From the IMG/VR virus record IMGVR_UViG_2681813261_000026: 26,781 bases of DNA; one strand, written 5' to 3'. The position numbers were made by a program. Positions 6,001 to 9,000 of this stretch are shown here, piece after piece (positions within the stretch are counted from its first letter, which is position 1; each line of letters begins with the position of its first letter). This DNA comes from a virus (lineage: Duplodnaviria; Heunggongvirae; Uroviricota; Caudoviricetes).

Positions 6001-9000
6001 GGTACTGGCGACCGTATCCCATGCGAGGAAATCCGGCCAGATGACCATCAGCTCACGCTGGCTGAAATTCTGACGGTAGGCTTTCACCTCGGAAACGGTC
6101 TTACAGCCCCATGCGCTGATATACCCGAAAGCGCGCAGCTTCTGACAGACTGATGCCAGTGCAACAGCCACCTCTTTGGTGTCCAGTCCCGGCACGCCGA
6201 GAATACGCGGTTTAACACCGGTTACCGACTCCGCCGCCAGCAGGGCTTTCAGTCCGGTGTACTGACCGTTTTCGTCGGTGGTGCCGATGATATTGGAAAC
6301 GGTCTGCGCGAGTTTCGTTTCCTCGTCGTCGCCGGTGCCGTCTTCCACACGCACGACAACGGTGACCGGTTTTGACTGGTCGGCGATGGCCTGCAACGAT
6401 GCCGCCAGCGTGCCTTTTTTACCGGCCTTTGCAATTGCGCTCTGCACATTGGTAATCAGCACCGGTTTATTGAGGGGGAAGGTTTCCGCATCCGCATCGC
6501 TGGCCGTGCAGACCATGCCGACAATGGCAGTGGATACGGTGGAAATGACGCGGGTGCCGTCGTTAATCTCCAGCACCTGCACGCCGTGATGATAGTCACT
6601 CATCCGTTTAACTCCGTGGTTAATGGGTGCAACTATTTTCTGTTGGGCAGTGCATGAGACGCTATTTGACCTGGCTGGTCAGTGGATGAAACAACAGATA
6701 AAGAAAATGCGGGCAATTCGCCCGCATGTCCTGATTTGTACACACTCATTTTCCGACTGACAGTTTACATAGCCCAAACGCTATCAAATCTGACAGCCTG
6801 CTATGAGCGAAAAGCGTTAAATCTCACGATATCTGCTACCGGGAAAAATTTCGATTATCTTCGATGGGAACTTTGATAATGTAGTAAATGCCATTTTCAG
6901 CGATCACTTTTCAAGCGTGTGTAAATGATTAATGTTAAAAAATTGACTTCACTGAAATAAGGTTGCTAGTATTTTTGGAGCAACCATTAATGTTTTTTAT
7001 TTAAGGAATGTAAATGACATACGCACTGATTGATAATTCAACTCTAACTGCAGTCCAAAGAATCGAGGGGAAAGTAAAAACAAGATCGAAGGACTCAGTA
7101 GATACAGACATAATAGCATTTGAGAACTATATACAGTCTATTTTGTTCTATGATCACGTTATCGCGGTTGATGATTATATTCCAGAGTACCGTGGGAGTA
7201 GGATTTCAAGTTTCAGAGAGATATTATTTCTTGATAAAGCACAATATGGGTTGGATGAAATTGAAAGTGAAGCAAAAAAAATATCTGATGCATTGAAACC
7301 TAAAATTCGTGGTGGAACATTTGTTAATGACGATTTTAAAAAACTAATTGAACTTCTTCAGACACATATCATATGTACATGGGACATTAGTTCAAGTGTT
7401 TATCATCTAACACTGAAGAACTTATCTGATGGAGGTAAGGAGTTTGAAAAATATGGTAACATTGCTGCTGCCATTTTTTCAGAACTGCGTGATGCTGCTG
7501 AGTCTGGTAATAGAACAAATGGCGATGTTGAACTTCTCGATCGATTTGGCAACCCTATTCGCAAGGGGTACAAAGTTCCCGGAGCAAAATGGGGGGATGG
7601 CACATCTGCTGGTGAAGCATCAGATGCAATCAAAGCATTCGTGGCTTCGCTTGTATGGCTGGCTAATCGGGCAGTATTTTATTCTCTCACAGCTAAGTAC
7701 CTTCAAGCAGATACTTTTTTATATCCATTACGTCAGGCGTATCAACAGACATATTTAAGCCAAAACTGTCAGTATGGTTTTGACTATGCTAAACATATTG
7801 TAGAAAACTTTTCCACTTCGTTAAGTCATGATCTCATTGATATTCATTCTGGTGGTAAAGCTGTAGCAACAGCAACTTCGCTTCCTTTATTTTCGGCATG
7901 GCTCGCAAAAGAAACTGGTGATCCAAGTTGTATTGTTGAAGCTGCTTATAACATAAGGGACAACAACGAATTTGTAAGGGCCCGTGAGAAAATGCGAGAA
8001 ATAAAGCGCTTGTTTGATGAAAATGAATTGCCTCAAGCTAATAAGTCAGTAAGAGCATTGCTTACTGAAGTATCGAAAGAATCAGATTATATTCGAACTA
8101 AGTATGGGCTCAAGACTAGACAAGGTGTACCTGTAACTAAGCTTGTACATGTATACAATACTGTTGCGGCTATTAATTCCCTTCCGAAACTACCGACCTT
8201 TAATTTTAAAGTTAAAGTTCCTGATTTCTTATATGATCTTAAAAAACCCAAGGGGTTTCGTGCTCTCTATCGAAATTTGACTAATGATCTTTCTACTGTG
8301 TGGTCGTTAGGAGAAGCTCGAGATATTCTTGGAAGTAAAGTTGTGATAGATAATCATGCAAGAATTTACAGTCCGAAGCATGAAGAACCGCGTTTCAAAA
8401 ACTCTCATTCCCCATATAAGAGCCCGATGTAGCTTAAGAAAAAGACACGCCCACCTTGTGCGTCTACTTCTGGCACAGAGCGGACTCTCAGATTAGGCTT
8501 TACTCTGTGCCATAGATATGTAAGCTCACACCAGAGCTCATACAACTTATTGCGGCATTTCCGGCCATTCAGGATTTGCAGGATCCACACGACTGACCAG
8601 AACACTGTAGCGTTCCCATGCCTCCAGTCGACTGCGCTCCTCATCTGTTGCCATATTCAGCCTGACAGCGCGCTCCAGCGGCAAAATCACGGATTCAGCA
8701 TCTGCAAGAAGTCTGGCTTTCCGATTTTCTGCCTGCTGCTGCAATTCCTCTGCCGTATAAATTCGTTTAATCACTGTACAGTCCTTAAACATCCAGTTCC
8801 CTGAAATGTCCGCCCGTCGGTTAGCAGTAATATCCGGCACTTCAACAACACTTAATCCATCCGGTCTGATAGCTGTCACATCCTTTTCCACATAGCGGAT
8901 AATATTATCTTTGTCGTACGCTATTTTTATCGTGTCATCAGCAAAATACTTTTGTTCTTCGTACCAGTTCTTACCATCTTCTGAAAAAAACCAGACAACA

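Follow-up and report, generated by a model that had tools for sequence, protein, structure and literature searches.

The hairpin upstream of the tail sheath gene FI in this P2-like prophage, together with the U-tract behind it (6707..6727 and 6699..6706), is very probably an intrinsic terminator ancestral to the tail operon, with the real Ogr site (6676..6693) lying downstream of it and the cargo DNA inserted upstream. Judged by the comparisons set out below, this terminator is genuine, conserved and of an ordinary kind, and it sits right beside the Ogr-dependent PF promoter. The window, by which we mean the whole stretch of 26,781 nucleotides analysed, represents the late-gene region of the prophage, which is read on the minus strand (Table 1). 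At its left end ogr is followed by the tail genes D, U, T, E and FII; the coordinates of ogr were estimated from an ORF at 1..282 and the position of the Pfam match within it. Next after G comes H. An IS21-like element of the ISSso4 family interrupts the portal gene and makes the prophage defective; homology with the portal protein of P2 ends at residue 233, the point of insertion, beyond which lies a vgrG gene. Since the portal gene is cut, the terminator may be under no current selection in this particular genome.

Table 1. Coordinates of the features discussed in the text, in the numbering of the window
Feature	Position	Strand	Remarks
ogr, late-gene activator gene	1..219	-	Ogr_Delta zinc finger Pfam match, 2e-21
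FI, tail sheath gene, first gene of the F operon	5413..6603	-	
Inferred PF core	6627..6640	-	-10-like GAAAAT at 6640..6635; start CAC at 6629..6627, by P2 alignment
Predicted PF activator (Ogr) site	6673..6696	-	TGTTGTTTCATCCACTGACCAGCC; homology to P2 and 186 sites
U-tract of the putative terminator	6699..6706	-	TTTCTTTA directly 3' of the stem
Putative terminator stem-loop	6707..6727	-	ATGCGGGC / GAATT / GCCCGCAT; aligns with phage 186 t45 and P2 17528..17548
Exact TGT-N12-ACA	6727..6744		TGTCCTGATTTGTACACA; chance match, about -99 to -116 from the inferred PF start
Conserved flank, FI side of the cargo slot	6728..6814		Absent in cargo-less relatives; one inverted-repeat arm inside
FI-side inverted-repeat arm	6787..6814		About 6761..6814 by local alignment
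Cargo gene, 472 aa	7014..8432	+	Low-G+C DNA; own promoter-like site at 6943..6972
Second terminator-like hairpin, cargo 3' end	8436..8470	-	AGACGC..GCGTGTCT then TTTTTCTT; -12.4 kcal/mol
G-side inverted-repeat arm, bracketing the cargo	8467..8494		
G, tail-fibre assembly gene, last gene of the V operon	8547..9074	-	Caudo_TAP, 2.8e-33

Scanning of the minus strand finds ATGCGGGCG-AAT-TGCCCGCAT at 6727..6707, with 9 pairs of which 6 are G-C, followed by TTTCTTTATC; read continuously on this strand, the element is ATGCGGGCGAATTGCCCGCAT and then TTTCTTTATC. In the RNAfold prediction the stem has 8 bp and the loop 5 nt, with an energy of -14.9 kcal/mol, or -17.9 kcal/mol once the flanking pairs are included, and the 81-nt context of the hairpin folds better than its shuffled versions (z = -3.1). 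The stem of 8–9 pairs, 6 of them G-C, closed by a loop of 3–5 nt, is of the kind required of an intrinsic terminator, and the G+C-rich stem, short loop and U-tract on the 3' side only leave no notable difference from canonical Rho-independent terminators. The T-rich tract is present on one side of the stem while the other side is not T-rich, and the element is therefore unidirectional. The hairpin with its minus-strand U-tract had been recognised in the initial annotation, where it was placed at 6709..6725; these coordinates cover only the G+C core of a stem that really extends over 6707..6727. The simple terminator pattern is not rare, being found twice in 3.5 kb against 2.8 occurrences expected; the case for function rests on conservation and on compensatory changes.

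The comparison set comprised 154 distinct FI-upstream regions taken from 160 loci. With hairpins counted when they end 1–30 nt before the activator site's TTGT, 103 of the 154 regions have a G+C-rich stem-loop whose T-rich tail is on the strand running in the FI direction, and the commonest distance between hairpin and TTGT, 13 nt, is the one found in the window. These 103 hairpins are made of 66 different stems, which fall into unrelated families including GCGGGC, ACGGGC, GCCCTCC, GCCCACCG, GCCCCG and AGCCCGGC. When the 37 hairpins with a shared GGGC/GCCC core were analysed by RNAalifold the stem was recovered, with 4 of the 7 consensus pairs changed on both sides. The stem of the window carries a T:A pair at a position occupied by G:C in most relatives, and in a single locus (L004) the 3' side alone is changed at this pair. 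Structure and polarity are thus conserved while sequence and spacing are not, which is the signature of a terminator and not of a protein-binding site. In the relatives that bear the conserved block next to the hairpin, the hairpin is retained, by strict criteria, in 43 of 44 distinct cases, the sole failure being P2, whose copy is weakened by a mismatch. In at least 18 relatives a DNA invertase gene runs into the activator site and the hairpin is absent, so PF does not need the terminator.

The gene order in genomes with an empty slot indicates which operon the hairpin belongs to. In 22 loci without cargo, drawn from many genera, the order behind the G stop codon is a spacer of 5–25 nt, the hairpin, the T-tract, the GTTGT site and FI, the whole gap between G and FI being 122–152 nt. 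Viable phage isolates in which FI likewise comes directly after G include Salmonella phage STYP1 and several Yersinia phages. The position of the hairpin directly behind the G stop in these 22 loci identifies it as the ancestral terminator of the V-W-J-I-H-G operon, abutting PF. The record of phage 186 (NC_001317) contains the same arrangement in annotated form: the tail-fibre assembly gene ends at 14054, terminator t45 occupies 14058..14081, the binding site of the B protein, which is the activator in this phage and a homologue of Ogr, lies at 14091..14110, pJ starts at 14159 and the sheath gene (J) begins at 14183. A four-way alignment places t45 on the hairpin of the window and the B-protein site on 6677..6696. 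Both genomes thus share the sequence of assembly gene, terminator, about 10 nt, GTTGT..CCA, a start about 50–55 nt further on and sheath gene; they differ in that about 1.8 kb of cargo and flanks separates the assembly gene from the terminator in the window, whereas the two are directly adjacent in 186, and in that the 186 hairpin is shorter and weaker. The reading of the hairpin as a minus-strand terminator that ends upstream transcription beside PF, already put forward in the initial annotation, is therefore supported by structure, by conservation and by the alignment with t45. The junction of a terminator with an activator site upstream of the sheath gene is already known, being annotated in phage 186, with the PF site annotated in P2; it is simply a case of compact phage gene organisation, and its significance is small beyond correct annotation.

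The likeness to P2 itself is close, with about 84% identity over the whole region upstream of FI, the same TGT-N12-CCA core, the same position of the site relative to FI, although one base closer in the window, and a cargo gene (fun(Z) in P2) divergent from FI. The cargo gene is a different one, the right half-site reads CCAAC in P2 and CCAGC in the window, and the P2 copy of the hairpin contains one mismatch and reaches -8.3 kcal/mol, compared with -14.9 kcal/mol in the window. The P2 record does not annotate this copy as a terminator and places the V-operon terminator next to G instead.

Relative to the cargo-less genomes, the whole stretch between the G stop and the hairpin base (8546 to 6728) is inserted DNA. 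The gene order in the 22 cargo-less loci and in phage 186 supports the earlier proposal that the H-G operon was separated from its original terminator by insertion of the cargo; the accompanying claim that this junction marks the FI-side boundary of the cargo island did not hold, since the variable cargo does not end at 6744. From FI to about 6811..6816 the sequence is homologous among P2-like phages that carry different cargo; behind G there is a corresponding conserved block, and the two blocks form an inverted repeat. The repeat finder reports the two arms of 28 nt each (6787..6814 and 8467..8494) as 75% complementary, and by local alignment the repeat is about 60 nt long with a score of 34, compared with 18.2 ± 3.4 in shuffled sequences and reached by 0 of 1000 of them. 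The consensus of the arms, derived from 21 distinct arms per side, is AATCTGACAGTCyGCTyTGwGCsAGrAGCGGACrTT; conservation collapses sharply at the same offset on either side, and the arms of the window are more degenerate than the consensus at their inner ends. This layout resembles the Z/fun locus of P2-like coliphages, which, according to PMC8987985 (citing Nilsson et al. 2004), has its cargo between G and FI with inverted repeats around it, those flanking fun being described there as enabling site-specific recombination.

The flanks were also considered as a dispersed, ERIC-like enterobacterial repeat and this was rejected: the arm is present in 1866 of 5426 E. coli genomes, with a median of one occurrence in each, and its distribution is consistent with restriction to P2-like prophages. 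A present-day inversion switch operating through the repeats was not supported by the 26 loci compared: the orientation agreed in each of the 13 shared-cargo matches, with no inverted case. The second hairpin at the 3' end of the cargo is comparable in strength to the P2-annotated V-operon terminator next to fun(Z) (-13.0 kcal/mol), and would probably be the first stop for most read-through from G.

The initial annotation correctly expected an Ogr-dependent PF promoter at this junction upstream of FI, and the aligned annotations of P2 and 186 place its activator site at 6673..6696. The P2 record (NC_001895) lists an 'activator binding site; activation of pF promoter' at 17555..17583, a start of the F operon at 17626..17628 and the FI ATG at 17652. 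The alignment with the P2 PF region that had been suggested as a check on the first proposal was run, and it carries the activator site to about 6671..6697 and not to 6727..6744; the transcription start would by the same alignment fall at 6627..6629. The predicted core on the minus strand, TGT-TTCATCCACTGA-CCA, occupies 6693..6676, on the FI side of the hairpin and thus opposite to the dyad that had been proposed. Its centre (6684.5) is at -56.5 from the presumed start, compared with 57.5 bp in P2, and Ogr is known to bind inverted repeats centred at about -55 (PMC3152322).

The core at 6676..6693 matches TGT-N12-ACA in 5 of 6 letters, with CCA in place of ACA, and the same deviation is present in P2 PF, in P2 PO/PP and in the 186 pJ site. 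Among the 154 distinct regions the TGT lies 88–91 nt upstream of the FI ATG in 151, and the trinucleotide after N12 is CCA in 124 and ACA in 4. The PF sites in 74 distinct upstream regions, all belonging to other genera, were used to build a position weight matrix, and both strands of the window were scanned with it (53,516 positions). The first rank was taken by 6673..6696 with 22.1 bits, followed by the PO/PP site at 20169..20192 (20.7 bits) and the PV site at 13864..13887 (12.8 bits), so that the top three are the three places homologous to P2-annotated activator sites. On these sequence comparisons the real Ogr site is the TGT-N12-CCA at 6676..6693. As background, Grambow et al. in 1990 reportedly found PF to be still fully activated by Ogr when deleted from the 5' side as far as about -69.

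The initial annotation had instead taken the exact TGT-N12-ACA at 6727..6744 as the element through which PF responds to Ogr. On this model the hairpin would separate the activator site from the promoter core, and transcription would start near 6680. The letters are indeed there, they fit the textbook consensus exactly, and they stand upstream of FI on the correct side of the gene; the role assigned to them does not survive comparison. Five exact matches occur in the window against 7.72 ± 2.96 expected, at least 5 being found in 87 of 100 shuffled sequences, and none of the late-promoter activator sites inferred from the P2 annotation coincides with any of the five; the annotated activator sites of P2 and 186 that belong to this promoter align elsewhere. 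The counterpart of the dyad in P2 reads TGA..GCA, of the 44 distinct relatives with this block only 7 have the exact form, and in cargo-less relatives the dyad is absent, the G coding sequence being there instead. Its centre (6735.5) is at about -107 from the start inferred from P2, far from the expected position of about -55, and the best placement of the motif model over it yields -11.7 bits, which is rank 1688 of the 53,516 positions. We conclude that 6727..6744 is a chance match and not an Ogr site, and the arrangement built on it is strongly disfavoured, to the point of being extremely improbable. A search for exact TGT-N12-ACA is accordingly a poor way to find Ogr sites, as 0 of the 3 real sites of the window match it exactly and 5 of 5 exact matches are spurious, while the extended GTTGT..CCAAC motif works for this purpose.

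Two further readings concern the hairpin itself. The palindrome might work as DNA, as a site of protein binding or recombination at the FI-side edge of the cargo slot, and not as an RNA terminator. It does lie exactly where the inserted DNA starts relative to cargo-less genomes, and the slot is bracketed by inverted repeats of the kind linked to site-specific recombination in PMC8987985 (citing Nilsson et al. 2004). The arms of these repeats, however, are separate elements (6787..6814 and 8467..8494), the palindromic hairpin is also found in genomes without any cargo, and across genera the sequence of the stem is not conserved, whereas pairing and the one-sided T-tract are, which is what an RNA terminator leaves behind; we regard this reading as highly improbable. 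It is also very unlikely that the hairpin terminates a small RNA transcribed towards FI from the conserved block 6728..6786. Such an RNA could be suspected from the conservation of this block, which is about 95% in E. coli P2-like phages whatever their cargo, and from a small ATAGC/GCTAT hairpin within it that has one compensatory variant, ATAAC/GTTAT. The strand of the block that runs in the FI direction, however, shows no promoter-like site, Rfam matched nothing at its gathering thresholds and, in a permissive scan, gave hits of chance level only (E about 1–10), and the conservation is explained by the role of the block as arm and flank of the inverted repeat that bounds the cassette.

The explanation that we favour is thus that of a tail-operon terminator with PF downstream and the cargo upstream. 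The hairpin at 6707..6727 with the U-tract at 6699..6706 would act as a Rho-independent terminator for minus-strand transcripts, being the ancestral terminator of the V-W-J-I-H-G tail operon and the counterpart of t45 in phage 186. The predicted PF activator site, GTTGT-N..-CCA, would begin thirteen bases downstream of this terminator, and Ogr bound to the core at 6676..6693 would recruit RNA polymerase for transcription of FI-FII-E-T-U-D. The cargo cassette bounded by inverted repeats (6728..8546) lies between the G stop and the terminator. The weaker hairpin at 8436..8470 would then probably stop most of the read-through from G, and the PF-proximal terminator would serve as a second barrier, keeping transcripts that cross the cargo out of the Ogr-dependent tail operon. 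We infer both this insulating role and the efficiency of termination that it implies.

More tentatively, the PF-proximal terminator may have been kept in P2-like phages with cargo as a selected insulator and not as a relic, forming together with the cassette a standard shielded slot; this is a possibility to which we give somewhat less than even weight. It fits the compensatory T:A pair of the stem and the retention of the hairpin in 43 of the 44 relatives that bear the block. If it is true, a defence or moron gene with its own promoter could be swapped in this slot with no leak into the Ogr-dependent tail operon in lysogens. The position of the G-FI slot cargo upstream of the ancestral operon terminator also helps to delimit defence-gene cassettes in P2-like prophages.

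The product of the cargo gene gave no matches in Pfam, NCBIfam, PADLOC or PDB and matched only phrog_13435, a family itself of unknown function. Occurrence of this cargo outside the P2 context was considered and rejected: the exact protein, found among 26 contigs, lies between G and FI at all 10 of the places listed.

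For the cargo between the tail-fibre assembly gene G and the tail sheath gene FI, the index of the assembly collection has the exact 472-aa protein in 1935 blocks. Among the matches listed, ten of ten places are in P2-like prophages, with the gene flanked by G and FI. No match to it was found in Pfam, NCBIfam, PADLOC or PDB, and its sole match is phrog_13435 (function unknown). We consider it a candidate for an uncharacterised lysogenic-conversion or defence gene.

In the window this cargo has imperfect inverted repeats on both sides. Each arm contains a 7-bp palindrome (GTCCGCT-N10-AGCGGAC), and conservation in 21 distinct relatives ends sharply and symmetrically in both arms at GCGGACrTT. 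Inverted repeats around fun, the cargo gene of P2, are credited to Nilsson et al. 2004 in PMC8987985, and the repeats bracketing our cargo appear to match them as described there. The cargo was in inverted orientation in none of the 26 loci compared. The second hairpin of the G–FI region, overlooked by a simple terminator scan because of an internal bulge in its stem, is probably the first terminator in the path of read-through from G.

Coordinates of the features discussed
Feature	Position	Strand	Details
Cargo gene, 472 aa	7014..8432	+	promoter-like site at 6943..6972
Inverted-repeat arms	6787..6814 and 8467..8494		imperfect; extending to about 6761..6814 and 8467..8527
Second terminator-like hairpin	8436..8470	-	-12.4 kcal/mol, then TTTTTCTT; 3' end of cargo
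Real activator sites	6676..6693, 20172..20189, 13867..13884		right halves CCA, CCA, ACC respectively
Remaining exact TGT-N12-ACA matches	8132..8149, 11248..11265, 15259..15276, 24842..24859
Interrupted portal gene / IS / vgrG region	about 22730..25367, and 25351..26754

In a subgroup of P2-like prophages (loci L003, L005–L007, L009, L010, L014 and others of the FI-upstream comparison), a DNA invertase-like ORF ending in ..LSTLYKKFPSSATKNKLCHPLANRDK* reads, about 100 nt upstream of FI, across the activator site of the FI promoter, PF, and the terminator hairpin is absent. Unlike its counterpart in P2, the junction of the O and V operons in the window has neither the orf30 cargo nor a terminator, in contrast to the G–FI junction. 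The stop codon of the tail gene S (TAG, 13888..13886, minus strand) immediately adjoins the PV activator site (AGTTGTGCCATTCC..) within the region 13864..13888.

All three real activator sites of the window depart from the TGT-N12-ACA motif on which the initial annotation relied, whereas the four exact matches remaining besides that at 6727..6744 fall, in every case, within the IS element or a coding region, and no late promoter coincides with any of them.

On the portal/IS side of the window, the prophage is both truncated and defective. Homology of the portal gene Q to P2 Q ends at residue 233, after which the gene is broken by an IS21-like element (ISSso4 family; istA and istB), and a vgrG-type gene comes next after this element.
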